Shown here in pieces: positions 18,484 to 49,631 of a stretch of DNA of 64,000 nt. The number at the start of each line of letters is the position of its first letter. Position 1 is the first letter of the stretch. Position numbers and translations under genes: made by a program. The DNA is from an uncultured Anaerotruncus sp. GTDB taxonomy: Bacteria; Bacillota; Clostridia; Oscillospirales; CAG-272. The stretch lies in contig CABPZE010000001.1 in NCBI GenBank assembly GCA_902461815.1, forward strand, positions 129,374-193,373, read 5' to 3'. Under the pieces are notes generated by a model that was not told the origin of the DNA, searched no databases, and worked only from the letters and a program-made list of their open reading frames with translations.

Positions 18484-18735
18484 AAAACAAAAAGCCCCCA
18501 CATCCTATCAGGACGCAGGAAGCGCGGTACCACCCGATTTCGCGCCGGTAAGCGAAAGAACACACCGACGCACTCTTATATATCCGGATAACGGCGGATG
18601 CCGCAGAAAACTACGCCCTATGGTTTCATTTTCTTCGCTCGTGGGGCGACTTCGACTGCCGTCAGCCGCGGACTTTGCACCAGGTGCCCGCTCTCTTCGG
18701 ACTCGCACAGCTTACTGCTCCCCGTCATTGCGTTT
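18484..18735 (-). promoter_or_regulatory. T-box riboswitch leader (valine, candidate specifier GUC) upstream of valS
   Basis: The minus strand shows AGAGAGCGGGCACCTGGTGCAAAG (stem I), GAAGUCG (candidate specifier), and the T-box AAATCGGGTGGTACCGCG (plus-strand 18523-18535). A terminator helix follows, then CTTTTTGTTTTT. Confidence 0.85.
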
Positions 18736-18744
18736 GTTTGTCTC

Positions 18745-18900: not shown

Positions 18901-18976
18901 GCTGCTATGGCTCAGTCGGTAGAGCACATCCTTGGTAAGGATGAGGTCGTCAGTTCGATTCTGACTAGCAGCTCCA
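18901..18976 (+). tRNA. tRNA-Thr (anticodon GGU), CCA encoded
   Basis: I folded the cloverleaf by hand. Acceptor GCTGCTA/TAGCAGC; D arm GCTC-AGTCGGTA-GAGC; anticodon arm CATCC-TTGGTAA-GGATG; T arm GTCAG-TTCGATT-CTGAC; then T-CCA. Confidence 0.9.
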
Positions 18977-43340: not shown

Positions 43341-43440
43341 GAAGAAAAATATCAGATTTTTTCTGATGCACCCAACCTTTTTGACTTTTTCCGCGTCTTA
43401 TAGGTGAACCCCGAAAAAGAAAGCACACGAAAAAAGGAAG

Positions 43441-46044
43441 ATGCAGATGACTGAATATTTCGACAAAGACGACAATACCCTTGTTGAGCTTACGTTGCTT
43501 GGCAAGGAGCAGGCATACGAGGAGCTGGTTACCCGTCACGAGCGCTCGGTGAAAGGAACGGCTTATAAGATCACGCGGAATGAATTTTCCGCCGAGGATG
43601 CCGCGCAGGATGCTTTTGTTTCTGCATGGATGAATCTTTCCTCTCTCCGTGAACGTGATAAATTCGGTTCATGGGTATGCTCGATAGCAAAAAACTGCGC
43701 ACGCACGCTTGAGGCGCACTATCGCAGTACGATGCCGGATATCAGTCTTGACCTGCTTGAAAACCTTGATCTTACCGGATCTGACGAAAGCGGCTTGCTT
43801 GGGATGCTTTCCGATGACGGTAAAGCGGAGGAGATAAGACAGGCGGTAAGCGAGCTTAGCGAAAAGATACGTGAGACTGTAAGTCTGCATTACTTTGAGG
43901 GGCTTTCGGTGAAACAGATCGCCGCGAAGCTGTCCCTTCCGGAGGGGACGGTCAAATGGCGTCTTTCTGAGGGGAGAAAACAACTTAGAAAGGGTTACGG
44001 TGTGATGGAAAAAACGTATGAAGAAAATGAAGCTCTGGTTGCACGTGTTATGAGACAGGTCGAACAGCTTAAGCTGTGGCGGCTGAAAAATGACAGGAGT
44101 GGTTTTGAGGCAGAATACCGTGAAGTGCTTGCAGCCGTTGAGTCTCTTGCGGATTCAAAGGAAAAAAGCCACGCTCTTGCCGATGTGCTGATCCACGGAT
44201 ATTGGTGGATACCAGGAGAAAAGAACGATGAAGTTATGGCAAGAATCAAAAAAGCGGCGGAGAAAGGTCATAATGACGATGTAATGGAGTCGGTGGTTTG
44301 CAGCGAACACGAAAAACTGGAAGGACAGCAGAAGATCGACTTTATGCTGAACACTCAGATTCCTTATCTGACTGAAAACAAATACCGCAAGTCATTGGGA
44401 TACGTCTGGTTTTGGCTGGGGTATGCATACCGCCAAAACGATGACATTGAAAAGGCACTTGAAGCATTCGGAAAGGTGCTGGAAATTCTGACGCCTTCCG
44501 ACGTCTATTATGCTAACGCGCTGGCTGCAATCGGTGCTGAAAAACGTGTGCTTGAATCAAAAAAATCTCCCGAAGTCATAAAGACATTTCCGCATCCTAC
44601 CGGTGAGGTTTTTCGCTATGTTGGCGGTAAGCTGTATTTCTGGCAGCAGCCGGGATACAGTTGCGGAGTTTGGGATATGGAGTCGAGTCTGTTTTGGAAT
44701 TGCAGCGGATGCGACAGTATTATTTATGATCCGGATATGCTTCCGGGTGATAAAATTACATCCTCTAACGGAAAAGTGACTCTGACATACACAAGAGACA
44801 ACGCAAGTGTTGATACTCCTGCCGGAAGATTTTCAGGCTGTTCGGTGTTTACTCTTGAGGGAAACCATCACGGCGTGAAATACTGTGAGACATACTTTTG
44901 CCCGGGAGTAGGTATTGTAAGTCAGATAGTCGAAAGACGCGGCGCAAGATATCAATGGCAGCTTTCGGAGTATTCGATATGCGGGGGAAACGGGTTTATT
45001 CCCTTTGCGGCGGGCAACTGTTGGAAGTATGTTCAGACCGTACCGGATAACGCCCTCATAGTTGAAAATGAAAATATATTTGAAACTACGGCGTTTGAAA
45101 ACGGAATGGCAACTGTATCGGCAATGTCATATACCCAACACTGTGGATATCGCGATACATGGGAAGGCAAGATCATTGAGGCGAGAAATGAATACTGCGA
45201 TCGCTCAGATAAGCTTTGCGATGTGGAACCTGCGCTTCGGCGCGCCGGAGAGCTTGCCGTAACTCCGCGCCAGAAGCGTCATACCGAGATCGCCTCTGAG
45301 GTAATGAGACGGATAATGTCCTGCGATCCTGAGACAAATCCCGGTTACACCGAAAAAGGCAGATGGAATTTCTTTGAGTATGATGCAGTAACAAAGAAGA
45401 ACGGACGAGTATGCTTTGATTATATCAGAAGGTACTGCTTTGAGTGGAAAGACATGGCTCGCACCGATTCAGAGGGCAAACGCGTGCTGTACAACTTCCT
45501 TTATGACATTTTGCACGACGCGGCAGACTGCGTGTGGTCTGACGAGTGGGTGCCGGGCTACAAATTTGAAAAGAATGGACAATATCCTACCAAGGATTTT
45601 TGCGTGCTTGATGAGGAGAGCGTCACAACTCCTGCCGGAACATTTGAAGACTGCCGTCACATTACGTTTGAACGTCAGGGCTTGAAGGGCGGTGCAGCAT
45701 ACCGGGGCGGAAGGTTTGACTATTGGTTTGCGCCCGGAGTGGGAATAGTTAAGTTTTCACATCCGATAGGAAAGGAAAATGTTGAAAATATCTGGCAGCT
45801 CACCGAATACCTCGGTACGGGCGACGGATATTTCCCGATTGATGACGGACTTTTTCGCAGATATGAGCCGCATACTCTCGGTAACGGTTGGCACGGCTCG
45901 GTGGAGTACACGTTTGATAAGGATGAGGGCGGCACAGTAATGTTCCGCAATGCGCTCGGTACGCAGGATCGCGCCGAATATGAGGCTGATAAAGCCAAAG
46001 CAGAAGCCGAAAAAGCCGCAAAGGAAGCTAAGAATAAAAGCTGA
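43441..46044 (+). CDS. ECF-type sigma-70 family factor fused to a ~670-aa non-membrane C-terminal region of unknown function
   Basis: Region 2 is HERSVKGTAYKITRNEFSAEDAAQDAFVSAWMNL. Region 4 is LHYFEGLSVKQIAAKLSLPEGTVKWRLSEGRKQLRKG. The ORF then continues without a stop or any hydrophobic segment and ends in a KAEAEKAAKEAKNK tail. The likely start is the second ATG (43447), given the RBS spacing. Confidence 0.8.
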   Translation: MQMTEYFDKDDNTLVELTLLGKEQAYEELVTRHERSVKGTAYKITRNEFSAEDAAQDAFVSAWMNLSSLRERDKFGSWVCSIAKNCARTLEAHYRSTMPDISLDLLENLDLTGSDESGLLGMLSDDGKAEEIRQAVSELSEKIRETVSLHYFEGLSVKQIAAKLSLPEGTVKWRLSEGRKQLRKGYGVMEKTYEENEALVARVMRQVEQLKLWRLKNDRSGFEAEYREVLAAVESLADSKEKSHALADVLIHGYWWIPGEKNDEVMARIKKAAEKGHNDDVMESVVCSEHEKLEGQQKIDFMLNTQIPYLTENKYRKSLGYVWFWLGYAYRQNDDIEKALEAFGKVLEILTPSDVYYANALAAIGAEKRVLESKKSPEVIKTFPHPTGEVFRYVGGKLYFWQQPGYSCGVWDMESSLFWNCSGCDSIIYDPDMLPGDKITSSNGKVTLTYTRDNASVDTPAGRFSGCSVFTLEGNHHGVKYCETYFCPGVGIVSQIVERRGARYQWQLSEYSICGGNGFIPFAAGNCWKYVQTVPDNALIVENENIFETTAFENGMATVSAMSYTQHCGYRDTWEGKIIEARNEYCDRSDKLCDVEPALRRAGELAVTPRQKRHTEIASEVMRRIMSCDPETNPGYTEKGRWNFFEYDAVTKKNGRVCFDYIRRYCFEWKDMARTDSEGKRVLYNFLYDILHDAADCVWSDEWVPGYKFEKNGQYPTKDFCVLDEESVTTPAGTFEDCRHITFERQGLKGGAAYRGGRFDYWFAPGVGIVKFSHPIGKENVENIWQLTEYLGTGDGYFPIDDGLFRRYEPHTLGNGWHGSVEYTFDKDEGGTVMFRNALGTQDRAEYEADKAKAEAEKAAKEAKNKS

Positions 46045-46097
46045 GTCATACATCTGTGATCTTATCCTTACCTTTATTTCAAAAAGCAAATAATTAT

Positions 46098-46132
46098 GTG
46101 GCTGTCGGGAACTAAAAACTCCCGGCAGCCAC
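46098..46132. terminator. Hairpin between the convergent sigma-fusion gene and rpe
   Basis: GTGGCTGTCGGGA actaaaaac TCCCGGCAGCCAC. Confidence 0.6.
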
Positions 46133-46154
46133 AGCCTTTGATTGTATATGAGTT

Positions 46155-46844
46155 TTATTCCGCGACATACGGATTTTCCCGTGCTGCCGCGCGCATTGCA
46201 AGCATGACCTGACGGGGGCGCGGTGAACCGAATATTGCCGAACCGGCAACAATGACATTTGCGCCCGCGCTTGTGACAAGACCTGCATTTTCGGCGGATA
46301 TACCGCCGTCCACCTCAATATCGGTGTCAAGCCCGCGCGCGTCTATCTGGCGGCGCAGAAATCTTACCTTTTCAAGTGTTTCGGGAATCAGCTTTTGTCC
46401 TCCGAATCCCGGCACGACAGTCATGACCAGTACCATATCAAGCATTGAAAGGTAGGGAAGCACTTCCTCTGCGGGGGTGGCTGGCGAAATTGCCATTGAA
46501 GCGCGAACCTTGGCGTCCCTGATGCGACTGAGGAGCGAAGCCGGGTCATTTACCGCCTCGCGGTGGACTGTTATTATGTCGGCTCCGGCAGAAATAAAGC
46601 GTTCAAGATATTTTTCCGGAGAGTTTATCATAAGGTGAACATCAAAGATAAGACCTGATCTGGGTCTGAGCGCGGAAATAATATCCGGACCAAAGCTGAG
46701 ATTCGGAACAAAATTACCGTCCATAATATCAAGGTGCAGAAAATCAGCTCCTGCTTCCTCGATCTTTTGTACCGATGATCCAAGCTCGCAGTAATCGGCC
46801 GCAAGCAGAGACGGTGAGATGTACAGCTTTTTCTGTGTATTCAT
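46155..46844 (-). CDS. rpe: Ribulose-phosphate 3-epimerase
   Basis: SPSLLAADY...LHLDIMDGNFVPN...MTVVPGFGGQ...VDGGI. Confidence 0.9.
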   Translation of the reverse strand: MNTQKKLYISPSLLAADYCELGSSVQKIEEAGADFLHLDIMDGNFVPNLSFGPDIISALRPRSGLIFDVHLMINSPEKYLERFISAGADIITVHREAVNDPASLLSRIRDAKVRASMAISPATPAEEVLPYLSMLDMVLVMTVVPGFGGQKLIPETLEKVRFLRRQIDARGLDTDIEVDGGISAENAGLVTSAGANVIVAGSAIFGSPRPRQVMLAMRAAARENPYVAE

Positions 46845-47066
46845 ATGTTGTATCCTGTCCTTTTTTGTAATGCGTGTTGAATTGCGGTGGCATCATTTGC
46901 GCCGCCGCCATATCATGTATATGAGAGAGCGCGGTGTGACGTCGGGAAGGGAAGCGAAAAATCCGCAGTTGCGGGAAGTCGGAAAAGCAGTCCCGGCGGA
47001 TGCCGCTTTTTCTTACGGAGCGCCGTATGTCATTGCGCAGACGGCAGTGTGCGGCGCTCCGGTTTG

Positions 47067-47540
47067 CTACAGCGCTTCAATAAGGCATACGGCGTGGGCG
47101 GCAATGCCCTCGCCGCTGCCGGTAAACCCCAGTCCTTCCTCGGTTGTGGCTTTAACGCTAATAAGGTTTGAGCTGACGCCAAGCGCGGAGGCAATGTTTT
47201 CCCGCATCTTTGGTATGAACGGTGACAGCTTCGGCCTTTGCGCAATAACGGTGGAATCTATGTTGACTATCCTGTAACCGTTTTCCCGGAGAAGCTCCGA
47301 GACGTTTTTTGCAAGCCTGAGACTGTCTGCGCCTTTGTAGCGCGGATCACTGTCCGGAAAATGCTTTCCGATATCGCCAAGTGCCGCAGCCCCGAGCAGT
47401 GCATCCATGATCGCGTGTGTAAGAACGTCCGCGTCGGAATGCCCCAGAAGCCCAAGCTCATATTCAAGCTTTACTCCGCCGAGTATCAGAGGTCTGCCCG
47501 CAACAAGTCTGTGTACATCGTATCCGTGACCTATTCTCAT
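47067..47540 (-). CDS. ispF: 2-C-methyl-D-erythritol 2,4-cyclodiphosphate synthase
   Basis: [12 protein letters not shown]...[22 protein letters not shown]. Confidence 0.95.
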
Positions 47541-48337
47541 TTTTTATCCTCCGAAACGGCGACGCTTTCCTCCTGACTGCGGCGGAACGAGAGGATCGCT
47601 TCGGCAATTGCAAGGTCACAGGCGTTGGTTATTTTAATATTTTCTCTGCCGCAGTCAACCAGCTTTACGCGGTATCCGATGCGTTCGACAAGAGAATTGT
47701 CGTCTGTGGCGGAAAATCCTTCGTCGCGTGCCGTATATGCTGCCGCACGGTAAAGGTTTGCACCGAATACCTGCGGAGTCTGAGCCTGCCACGCGGTGCT
47801 TCTTTCAACCGTTTCGGCAATAAAACCTTTTATGTCCGCAGTCTTAACCGTATCGACTGCGGGAACTGCGGCGCTTGCCGCTCCGTAACGGTATGCGGCA
47901 AGGCAGACCGAGCGTATCATATCCGGAGTTGTCAGAGGGCGCGCTGCGTCTGCAATGGCAAAAAAGGCTGTGTCATTGTCAGCCGCGCATATGCCGTTCA
48001 TTACCGACTCCTGCCGCGTTGCTCCGCCGTGTACCATTGCGCGGATCTTGGTGAATCCGAACTTTTCCCAGTACTCTTCATATATTTCTTCATCTCCGGG
48101 GCGGATGACAAGAATGATATCGCTTATGCAGTCAGCCTGCTCATAGGCGCGCACGGTCATTGCAACAACCGGCATGCCTCCAAGCAGCATGAACTGCTTG
48201 GGAGTTTCTCCGCCCATTCGCGACGATGAGCCTCCTGCCACTATCACTGCGGCAGTGCGGCGATTTTTCAGCTTTCCTACGACGGTACGCAGTATGTCAG
48301 CTATGCCGTCTGCTGTTTTTTTGTCGGAGTTATTCAT
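47537..48337 (-). CDS. ispD: 2-C-methyl-D-erythritol 4-phosphate cytidylyltransferase
   Basis: [21 protein letters not shown]. Start ATG 48337 overlaps the rpiB stop (ATGAATAA). The stop overlaps the ispF start. Confidence 0.9.
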
Positions 48338-48809
48338 ATTTCTGCTCATCAAAAGTCCCGTCTTCAAGCTCGCTTATCATGCGAAGACGGCGCTGGTGAC
48401 GCTCCTCGTCAAGAGGTTCGTTTGAAAGGAATACCTCTGTGATCTCGGCGATCTTATCGTCTCCGATAACACGCGCGCCCATACAAAGCACGTTTGCGGC
48501 ATTGTGCTTGCGGGTCATTTCGGCGGAGTATGTGTCGGAGCAGACGGCTGCGCGTATGCCGCGGTGTTTGTTGGCGGCAATCGACACACCGATCCCGGTG
48601 CCGCAGATAAGTATTCCGAGCGGAAATTCGCCGCTCTGTATGCGCAGGCACAGCTTGTGTACGGGAACGGGATAGTCACAGCTCTCGGTGGAATAGCAGC
48701 CCACGTCGGTGACAGACCAGCCGTTCTTTTGCAGTTTTTCAATCAGCTTAAGCTTCGCTTCATATCCGGCATGGTCGCTGCCTATGATTATTTTTTTCTG
48801 TGTATTCAT
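48330..48809 (-). CDS. rpiB: Ribose-5-phosphate isomerase B
   Basis: KIIIGSDHAGYEAK...ILICGTGIGVSIAANK. Confidence 0.9.
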   Translation of the reverse strand: MNTQKKIIIGSDHAGYEAKLKLIEKLQKNGWSVTDVGCYSTESCDYPVPVHKLCLRIQSGEFPLGILICGTGIGVSIAANKHRGIRAAVCSDTYSAEMTRKHNAANVLCMGARVIGDDKIAEITEVFLSNEPLDEERHQRRLRMISELEDGTFDEQKYE

Positions 48810-48857
48810 TTTGTGTATTTTCCTTTCTATGATCGTTTAAATCTGATAGATAATGTT

Positions 48858-49631
48858 TTATTTGCTCGACGGGGAGCTTGATGCAAGCCGCTCGGCGCGT
48901 TCTCTTTCTGCCTGTGAAAGCCTCAGATATACCGGACGCAGACTTTCCGCATCTTTAACCTCTCCGCGTCTGTATGCTCCAAGTGCTGAAAGAGCCACCG
49001 AGTATGCGGACTGATACCTCAGCTGTTCCGGAGTTTCAAAGGTTGAACCCTCCGGCATGAGACCGCGTACAAGCGAATATCCGTCCCCGCAGAGCCAGAC
49101 CTTGCCGAGCGGGAGCGTTTCGGCTTCAAATTCGGAATAGGCTATGGCGCGGTCGGGCGTAAGGCGTTCAAGTCCTCCGCCGCGGCGTGCAAATCGTGCG
49201 GTGTAAAGCTGACCGCGCCGCGCGTCCATGACGGGGCATATTATTTTGGGTTCACGAGCTTCGGTGTCTGTGTTACCGAAATCAAGATTCCGCGCCAGCG
49301 CCTCAAGCGTTGACACGCCCACTGCCGGGCGTCCTGAGCCGAAAGCGAGTCCTTTTACGGTTGCGACTCCTATTCTTACTCCCGTGAACGACCCCGGACC
49401 TGCGGCGCAGGCGAAAAGCTCAACGTCGTGAGGCTTAAGCGAAAAGGCGGAGAGTATCGACTCCACCATGGGGAGCAATGATTCGCTGTGTGTGTTGCCG
49501 TTATTGAGCGTATACTCAGCCAGCAAGGTTTCGTCCTCGCAAAGCGCTGCGGTTGCGGTTTTGGCTGTACTGTCAAGAGATAATATTTTCATTTTTCTGG
49601 CCGTTGTCCGAAAGCTTGATCTTACGGACAT
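48858..49631 (-). CDS. tsaB: tRNA t6A37 biosynthesis protein TsaB (YeaZ)
   Basis: MKILSLDSTAKTATAAL...AAGPGSFTGVRIGVATVKGLA. ATG 49631 directly abuts the tsaE stop. The homology-style start MKILSLD is at 49592. Confidence 0.85.
   Translation of the reverse strand: MSVRSSFRTTARKMKILSLDSTAKTATAALCEDETLLAEYTLNNGNTHSESLLPMVESILSAFSLKPHDVELFACAAGPGSFTGVRIGVATVKGLAFGSGRPAVGVSTLEALARNLDFGNTDTEAREPKIICPVMDARRGQLYTARFARRGGGLERLTPDRAIAYSEFEAETLPLGKVWLCGDGYSLVRGLMPEGSTFETPEQLRYQSAYSVALSALGAYRRGEVKDAESLRPVYLRLSQAERERAERLASSSPSSK

Follow-up and report, generated by a model that had tools for sequence, protein, structure and literature searches.

How can an extracytoplasmic function (ECF) sigma factor be kept in check when no anti-sigma gene lies beside it? 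The question is raised by a gene at positions 43441..46044 (forward strand) of a 64,000-nucleotide (nt) stretch of DNA, referred to below as the window, from an uncultured Anaerotruncus sp. (contig CABPZE010000001.1). The first ~190 codons of this gene specify a sigma core, and the same frame runs on into a large soluble extension. A sequence-only reading had proposed a one-component, anti-sigma-free signalling sigma factor of an uncharacterised class. Our analysis leads us to favour, with moderate confidence, a functional ECF (group 4) sigma factor under positive autoregulation, whose activity is probably set by the fused cytoplasmic C-terminal module, and not by a separate anti-sigma factor.

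An ECF core with a soluble continuation

The gene is a single open reading frame (ORF) of 867 amino acids (aa) from the first ATG, and of 865 aa from the ATG at 43447. The second ATG is probably the true start, because the ribosome-binding site (RBS) adjoins the first ATG whereas its spacing to 43447 is normal. A homolog that is 99% identical (P0001) is 865 aa long, in agreement with a start at 43447.

The sequence-only reading had recognised sigma-70 regions 2 and 4 in the first ~190 residues, and both are found by Pfam (Table 1), the match to Sigma70_r4_2 (PF08281) covering aa 130-182 with an E-value of 7e-13. The NCBIfam model for ECF factors, TIGR02937 (sigma70-ECF), scores 78.9 bits for a cutoff of 42.9, and in a sequence search of the PDB residues ~9-185 match ECF sigma factors exclusively (AlgU, SigW, RpoE, SigH and others). 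Regions 3 (Sigma70_r3) and 1 gave no Pfam match in the protein at E <= 1, and the linker between sigma2 and sigma4 is ~35-40 residues long (aa 98-129) and poorly conserved. With sigma2 and sigma4 present, regions 1 and 3 absent and a short linker, the protein has the features of ECF (group 4) members. All named NCBIfam equivalogs remain far under their cutoffs, the best being SigW (PRK09641; 83.1 bits for a cutoff of 209).

The same reading had described a long soluble continuation, malQ upstream and rpe downstream, and no anti-sigma partner; this picture stands. The extension comprises ~680 residues, and no transmembrane segment was found in the protein, the maximal Kyte-Doolittle mean over 19 residues being 1.04. 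The upstream neighbour encodes a GH77 4-alpha-glucanotransferase (malQ) and the downstream one, in convergent orientation, a ribulose-phosphate 3-epimerase (rpe). Anti-sigma-like domains are absent among the Pfam matches, and no anti-sigma gene lies near the 43441-46044 ORF.

Conservation of the fusion

A homolog search of 5.8 billion clustered proteins gave 875 matches. The best 120 of these 875 are ~840-907 aa long and have the same architecture; they are 52-62% identical to the query, except the one at 99%. We also scanned one genome per species of the Genome Taxonomy Database (GTDB), which provided 80 loci with full-length relatives (38-59% identity). All 80 lie in metagenome-assembled genomes (MAGs) of gut or rumen Clostridia, labelled Oscillospiraceae, Acutalibacteraceae, Candidatus Flemingiibacterium, Faecousia or 'Eubacteriales'. 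In 78 of the 80 species genomes a single stop-free ORF extends from query residue 40 or before to residue 800 or beyond, and the two exceptions are a frameshifted MAG (L015) and a truncated scaffold (L070). Since 78 independent species genomes hold the same ORF, the fusion is not an artefact of sequencing or assembly. The sequence-only reading had allowed that orthologs might have two separate genes; in 78 of the 80 loci they have one. Around it, no gene family is common to more than 8 of the 80 related loci, so that no conserved neighbour emerges.

Is the extension ever found without the sigma core? An exhaustive HMMER search with the extension only (aa 201-867) against 1.84 billion representatives recovered 335 clusters (50% identity), and most full-length matches begin at residue ~190-200. 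Four longer variants matching elsewhere were scanned: P0208 and P0214 have N-terminal sigma domains, P0192 and P0218 show none. For two sigma-less proteins the contigs were examined, and neither is counted as evidence for separate genes. P0122 (L081), a candidate stand-alone extension gene, begins 30 nt from the contig end and is a contig-edge truncation; P0290 (667 aa, L082) comes from a contig of ~2.6x coverage on which the gene is broken in two, a frameshift being the simplest explanation. The extension has so far been seen fused to this sigma alone, and members of the family are so far known only from uncultured Clostridia of gut and rumen.

A conserved promoter in front of the sigma gene

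A candidate promoter had been pointed out at 43373-43397 from the sequence, and it proves to be real and conserved: a two-block position weight matrix (PWM) detects an own-promoter site 5' of the sigma gene in 72 of the 80 loci. In the window the site (Table 1) scores 37.3 bits and is the sole one of at least 12 bits in the whole 64 kb. Of 47 upstream regions, 43 contain AACCTT or CCAACC, the distance from AAC to GTC is 17-18 nt in orthologs, and the promoter is kept across proteins down to 38% identity. Its position directly before the sigma gene implies positive autoregulation, described as general ECF behaviour in the text of the 2021 ECF re-classification (PMC7826278); the gene would then be transcribed from its own ECF-type promoter by the sigma factor that it encodes. 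Upstream of the -35 element, the A/T-rich tract is possibly UP-like. A sigma-70-type promoter (TTGACT...TATAGG) was also considered and discarded, its spacer being merely 12 nt and TTGACT not being conserved between loci.

In ~0.93 Mb of related loci, the strong extra PWM sites with a downstream ORF (~25-32 bits) precede a paralogous extended ECF gene in L027, L059 and L067; in L061, one of two strong extra sites precedes a small ORF. Five weaker sites (17.6-21.3 bits) have no ORF detected downstream. The paralogous product, a second ECF-like sigma of ~556-560 aa (L027:9545-11278, L059:9249-10993, L067:76-1821), is encoded near the main gene in some genomes and is absent from the window. It has an unrelated soluble C-terminal extension, the sigma core alone being common to both (30% identity), and the promoter before it, TCCAACCTTTT-N12-GTGTCTATATA, is very similar. 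This suggests that these Clostridia have further extension-bearing ECFs whose promoter specificities are related, or that cross-regulation takes place.

Scanning metagenomes with the pattern CCCAACCTTTT-N(11-14)-GTCTTA returned 120 loci, mostly chance matches in unrelated environmental DNA. Fourteen of them precede sigma genes, ~6 belonging to this family and the others being ordinary or other ECFs (25-34% identical), and the 120 loci brought no regulon information. Five of the loci (L090, L093, L105, L121 and L130) contain ordinary ECFs of ~190-200 aa after CCCAACCTTTT-N-(C)GTCTTA, with cores ~25-31% identical. The -35/-10 type is not unique to the family, since it precedes ECFs of unrelated environmental bacteria.

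The sequences following the -10 element differ between a short-type clade, to which the window belongs, and a long-type clade. In the former, the conserved sequence (43395-43420 in the window) is TTATAGGTGAAnCCCC-AAAA; in the latter (for example L056:5912-5965, L064, L065 and L072), conserved palindromes occupy the -10 region and the beginning of the transcript, GTCTAtAAGAC being followed by AAGCGCTT. Both the long-type palindromes and the short-type sequence could be operator sites or elements of the 5' untranslated region. Rfam has no family matching at these conserved positions.

Architecture of the extension

The full-length protein was modelled with AlphaFold2 (AF2) from a 36-sequence alignment, giving a mean predicted local distance difference test score (pLDDT) of 84 and a predicted template modelling score (pTM) of 0.69. 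The extension lies above ~85-90 pLDDT throughout, while sigma4 and the linkers are low. Conservation was expressed as majority frequency across 77 orthologs. It is highest in the first extension helix, aa 199-215 (0.75, versus 0.70-0.71 for sigma2/sigma4 and 0.48-0.59 for other parts of the extension).

The helices that follow resemble TPR repeats. Pfam TPR_1/TPR_2 match aa 321-349 under cutoff here, TPR families are precomputed for most homologs, and Foldseek with the full-length model retrieves, besides sigma domains, the TPR proteins BtubC and CTPR at probability 1.0, as well as PilF-type repeats. Matches of the same model to BcsC and ARO/CYC, of low template modelling (TM) score and high root mean square deviation, are not interpretable as homology.

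Two beta domains, D1 and D2, make up most of the remainder. An internal duplication had been read from the sequence, and HHalign bears it out: residues ~451-534 and ~722-812 align with 98.2% probability (E 3e-14, 37% identity) and have in common the motif TPAGxFxxC...(F/C)xPGVGIV...W.L.xY.G.G.G..P. BLASTP of the protein against itself gave no internal repeat; the D1/D2 repeat emerged by HHalign on sub-alignments. D2 matches PF21347 (DUF3108-like) with 30.7 bits for a cutoff of 27, over aa 722-771 and profile positions 136-183 of 199 only. When 30 D1/D2 segments are considered, 17 match PF21347 (best E 2.4e-9) and 9 match PF11306. A joint D1+D2 profile run against PDB sequences finds 3fzx and 4fvs at E ~2e-4 over ~65 residues, and the likeness to these DUF3108 and DUF3108-like proteins of YmcC fold lies in a motif of that length, (V)xTPAGxFxxC...W(F)APGVG(I/L)V. 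On these alignments, D1 and D2 are distantly related to DUF3108/YmcC. DUF3108 proteins have been described as outer-membrane beta-barrel proteins of unknown function (PMC4364669). They stand alone (~215 aa) and are exported proteins or lipoproteins of Bacteroidales and Proteobacteria, whereas the domains described here lie in the cytoplasm, in two or three copies attached to a sigma factor.

The isolated D2 model is of high confidence (pLDDT 90.9, pTM 0.88). Compared with the PDB by Foldseek it gives nothing at E <= 0.001, and 3fzx and 4fvs are absent among the 50 matches listed; likenesses to Bet v 1, START and lipocalin folds are weak (TM score 0.2-0.37, E >0.03); they hint at most at a ligand-binding-like fold and were not taken as evidence. 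The sequence-only reading had envisaged that the extension might match a known domain of established function. What we find is restricted to sub-threshold TPR matches and a DUF3108-like domain of unknown function.

The extension had also been called rich in Cys, Trp and Tyr, and to end in a Lys/Ala/Glu-rich tail. The composition is as stated, with an enrichment of about twofold: aa 191-867 contain 2.7% C, 2.7% W and 5.6% Y, versus 1.1%, 1.6% and 3.2% in the sigma part. However, 'Cys-rich' does not describe a conserved family trait, as C467 and C738 alone, one per beta repeat, are invariant, with C424 conserved at ~80%. We therefore consider metal or redox sensing via cysteines unlikely as a trait of the family. 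The tail is present, but conservation is lower there than anywhere else in the protein (majority frequency 0.29, 37% gaps).

Longer proteins of 1050-1150 aa form a subfamily (L056, L059, L072 and others; P0140, P0152, P0164, P0193) with a third DUF3108-like repeat at the C-terminus. One MAG, JAZNCE01 (L015 and L067), carries both a short-type copy, the frameshifted one, and a long-type copy, and the two types are therefore paralogous lineages.

A conserved start codon at the junction

Six diverse database proteins (~660-686 aa), P0122 among them, begin exactly at the Met equivalent to M189, and we therefore examined the DNA of the junction. A start codon is kept at this position in 81 cases out of 81: ATG in 74, ATG one codon earlier in 5 and GTG in 2. 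The sequence AGAAAGG(A/G) lies 10 nt 5' of it, inside R183-K184-(G/E/D)185, which corresponds to an aligned spacing of ~8 nt. This internal Shine-Dalgarno (SD) motif is the same as the genuine RBS of the family, GAAAGGA, and is complementary to the 3' end of Firmicutes 16S rRNA (AGAAAGGAGG).

Codon usage at the motif is strongly biased. R183 is encoded by AGA in 64 of 77 sequences, versus 20% gene-wide, and ranks first among 327 conserved columns (2G = 168, the next being 82); K184 is AAG in 72 of 75, versus 52% gene-wide, and ranks fourth. Where other codons are used, the purine motif is nevertheless kept: CGG-AAA-GGA in L018, L037 and L055, and AGG-GAG-GGC in L023 and L043. The second-strongest synonymous outlier of the gene is R179 (codons 179-182, 43975-43986), with AGA in 45 of 77 versus 20%; this bias lengthens the purine/A-rich tract 5' of the internal SD and is consistent with an unstructured landing region for the ribosome.

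As a control within the gene, and so with the same phylogeny, three conserved Met columns were compared for anti-SD matches of at least 5 nt within -20..-5. Such a match precedes M189 in 100% of sequences (mean 7.7 nt), versus ~1% at M204 and M282. Gene callers moreover place the start at M189 when the sigma part is missing through truncation or disrupted by a frameshift. Taken most simply, these features would make M189 a functional start that gives a free extension of ~679 aa beside the fusion, a reading that in our judgement lies somewhere between doubtful and evenly balanced. As to the one-component, anti-sigma-free sigma factor of the sequence-only reading, the conserved, uncharacterised soluble extension and the lack of an anti-sigma speak for it, and it is the conserved internal RBS and start that complicate the term 'one-component'.

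The junction also supports the best surviving alternative to our favoured reading, namely a sigma/anti-sigma pair in one gene. The free extension from M189 would be the main regulator, a soluble anti-sigma or co-factor acting in trans, and the fusion would mainly secure co-expression and stoichiometry. An 8-nt anti-SD complement at optimal aligned spacing, the universally kept start codon, the compensating codon choices and the behaviour of gene callers whenever the upstream part is missing are all expected in this scenario. Sigma and extension as separate genes should, however, then be met with occasionally, and they are found in none of the 80 species loci; furthermore, the SD-like sequence overlaps codons of conserved basic residues, and Pfam recognises no anti-sigma domain in the extension. 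We hold this scenario to be unlikely.

How the extension might act

In the reading that we favour, the sigma factor controlled by its own fused module, the extension would take the place of an anti-sigma factor. By analogy with ECF41 and ECF42, it would be an in-cis regulator or a signal sensor, and it could either inhibit, like part of the ECF41 extension, or be needed for activity, like the extension of ECF42. Helix 199-215 and the TPR-like repeats could dock on sigma4 or sigma2 and so gate the binding of core RNA polymerase (RNAP) or of the promoter; for ECF42, too, a contact with sigma4 is predicted for the proximal part of the extension (PMC8999054). Input would enter through the YmcC/DUF3108-like beta domains, two here and three in some variants, which would bind either a small molecule in the cytoplasm or a partner protein. 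A free ~679-aa extension initiated at M189 might add an effect in trans on the fused sigma, through competition or titration. In its fullest form, which we put forward only tentatively, the scheme makes of one ORF a self-contained sigma/regulator system with two products, the fusion and the free extension, whose ratio would set the activity together with ligand or partner binding by the beta domains.

Several observations weigh against control by the fused module. No target promoter besides its own was found with the PWM in the window or in the ~0.93 Mb of related loci. Neither Pfam nor Foldseek of D2 recognises a ligand-binding or anti-sigma domain, and the full-length AF2 model is of low confidence for sigma4 and the linkers (pLDDT 34-58). 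The homologs come exclusively from uncultured MAGs. As for the internal start, basic residues are usual at the end of sigma4 and could partly explain a purine-rich junction.

A second alternative is that the extension is an effector or a scaffold, which for example tethers the RNAP holoenzyme to a partner, a location or a substrate, the sigma factor itself being controlled only by transcription or proteolysis. TPR repeats are typically protein-protein interaction modules (PMC8999054), the number of beta modules is two or three depending on the lineage, as in adaptor proteins, and the D2 model revealed no ligand-binding fold by Foldseek. Nevertheless, conservation within the extension peaks in the helix just after sigma4, which is easier to reconcile with an intramolecular contact than with a distal scaffold, and autoregulation without an anti-sigma factor would lead to runaway expression unless a post-translational brake existed. 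We judge this scenario slightly less credible than the pair acting in trans.

Relation to known ECF groups

Among the modes of ECF regulation, C-terminal extensions rank second in frequency and occur in 19 groups (PMC7826278). The extension types given in the main text of the 2021 re-classification are SnoaL-like domains, the TPR of ECF42, Cys-rich extensions, DUF1835 and 5-7 transmembrane helices, and none of those listed there corresponds to TPR plus DUF3108-like domains in Firmicutes (PMC7826278).

The nearest relative in design is ECF42, whose extension of ~200 aa is essential for activity (PMC8999054). Could the family simply be a divergent member of this TPR-extension group, working in the same way? 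Both have an ECF core directly followed by a TPR-type helical extension, without a cognate anti-sigma factor, and while the proximal part of the ECF42 extension is predicted to contact sigma4, it is the proximal helix of the extension that is most conserved here. Yet the extension is here ~680 aa long and includes two or three more DUF3108/YmcC-like beta domains; the conserved YCII-related (DGPF) neighbour of ECF42 is replaced by malQ and rpe, without a conserved neighbour; and an internal start site is not reported for ECF42. The characterised members are Sven_0747, Sven_4377 and Sven_7131 of Streptomyces venezuelae and ECF-10 of Pseudomonas putida (PMC8999054), whereas the present family belongs to gut Clostridia. 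Membership in ECF42 is in our view improbable. Finally, an artefact joining a normal ECF gene to a downstream gene, for which nothing was found beyond a few database proteins without sigma part, is already refuted by the ORF kept in 78 of 80 species genomes; the truncated (L081) and most simply frameshifted (L082) contigs discussed above also speak against it.

ECF41 (for example SigJ of Mycobacterium tuberculosis), ECF56, ECF294, ECF295 and ECF205 likewise combine a fused regulatory domain with the lack of an anti-sigma factor and a modulated core activity (PMC3426412; PMC7826278). In ECF41 the extension consists of one small SnoaL-like domain, entirely different in fold and size: no SnoaL/NTF2 family matches our protein at E <= 1 (Pfam), and the model is a helical solenoid plus beta domains.

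Other groups with extensions are ECF57, with WD40-like repeats, ECF52, with a zinc-finger domain, and ECF53 (PMC8999054; PMC5826349). They show, as does the present family, that extension-bearing ECFs exist beyond ECF41 and ECF42; their hosts, however, are Planctomycetes and Actinobacteria and not Clostridia. ECF52 and ECF53 also carry transmembrane and extracellular parts. In our protein, WD40, zf-HC2 and RskA have no Pfam match, HxxxCxxC does not occur in aa 190-260, and transmembrane segments are absent. The sequence-only reading had stated that known extensions are much shorter than this one. This is correct for ECF41 and ECF42, but uniqueness in length is unsupported, since ECF57, ECF52 and ECF53 are extension-bearing as well.

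The core itself is ~29% identical to AlgU, SigW and RpoE, and the promoter, with its AAC-containing -35, its spacing of 17-19 nt and its (C)GTCT -10, resembles those of RpoE and SigW. The consensus is GGAACTT-N16-TCTGA for E. coli RpoE and TGAAAC-N16-CGTA for B. subtilis SigW. Those sigma factors differ in being ~190 aa long and held by membrane anti-sigma factors (RseA, RsiW, MucA). Taken together, the family is an uncharacterised, conserved variant of the already known class of extension-regulated ECF sigma factors, set apart by the group descriptions compared above.

Features of the locus

The coordinates of all features are collected in Table 1. The region between the convergent sigma and rpe genes (46080-46145) folds with -29.6 kcal/mol (z = -6.4 compared with shuffled sequences), and its hairpin is probably a bidirectional terminator, although a consensus terminator scan did not call it. 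On the reverse strand, 3' of the sigma gene, lies a housekeeping cluster (46155-49631) consisting of rpe, ispF, ispD, rpiB and tsaB, in which ispD overlaps ispF by 4 nt; it has no evident link to the sigma gene. Across the window, Rfam matches only a T-box leader at 18506-18737 (-) (106 bits, above gathering cutoff) and a tRNA gene at 18901-18973 (+).

Table 1. Features of the sigma gene and its flanks (positions in the window)
Feature	Position	Strand	Basis or remark
A/T-rich tract	43344..43363	+	Consensus aaAAAattTTt, ~6-8 nt 5' of ACCCAACC, 71 upstream regions
ECF-type promoter CCCAACCTTTT-N-GTCTTATAG	43369-43403	+	Two-block PWM
-35 element ACCCAACCTTTT	43370..43381	+	Highest-information block in 71-locus alignment
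-10 element CGTCTTATAG	43394..43403	+	tGTCTtAtAg conserved at fixed distance
Gene RBS AAAGGAAG	43433..43440	+	Read from sequence; GAAAGG/AAAGGA before start in 30-34 of 47 homologs
Sigma70_r2 (aa 29-88)	43525..43704	+	Pfam PF04542, E 2.8e-13, above gathering cutoff
Sigma-70 region 4 (aa 130-184)	43828..43992	+	Pfam PF08281 and PF04545, above gathering cutoffs
Internal SD-like AGAAAGGG, within codons R183-K184-G185	43987..43994	+	Synonymous-codon bias
In-frame start codon M189, first residue past sigma4	44005..44007	+	10 nt after internal SD
First extension helix (aa 199-215, LVARVMRQVEQLKLWRL)	44035..44085	+	Most conserved extension segment; AF2 helix, pLDDT ~87-90
TPR-like helical repeats (aa 216-373)	44086..44559	+	AF2: eight further helices, pLDDT >90
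Beta domain D1 (aa 376-572), DUF3108/YmcC-like	44566..45156	+	AF2 beta-rich, pLDDT ~90 or more
Three-helix insert (aa 573-629)	45157..45327	+	AF2: H574-584, H596-605, H609-627
Beta domain D2 (aa 630-843), DUF3108-like	45328..45969	+	Pfam PF21347; separate AF2 model
Lys/Ala/Glu-rich C-terminal helix (aa 844-867)	45970..46041	+	AF2; unconserved
14-bp GC-rich hairpin between convergent sigma and rpe genes	46097..46133	.	RNA fold

Significance

ECFs with fused regulatory extensions represent the least understood mode of ECF control, and only SnoaL (ECF41), TPR (ECF42) and Cys-rich (ECF238) extensions have been studied. The present family adds a far larger, multi-domain soluble extension, found in at least 80 species-level genomes and in 335 clusters at 50% identity, and its hosts are uncultured gut and rumen Clostridia, whose transcriptional signalling is almost unstudied. 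Three of its features lend themselves clearly to tests, namely the sharply defined autoregulatory promoter, the conserved helix at the junction and the conserved internal start, which may give a trans-acting extension. For the DUF3108/YmcC-like domain, otherwise known from exported Gram-negative proteins only, this would be the first functional context, cytoplasmic and linked to transcription. If the gene does give two products, a new principle of ECF control would follow, in which an anti-sigma or co-sigma factor is nested in frame within the sigma gene, a principle that would be peculiar to a large clade of uncultured Clostridia from gut and rumen.

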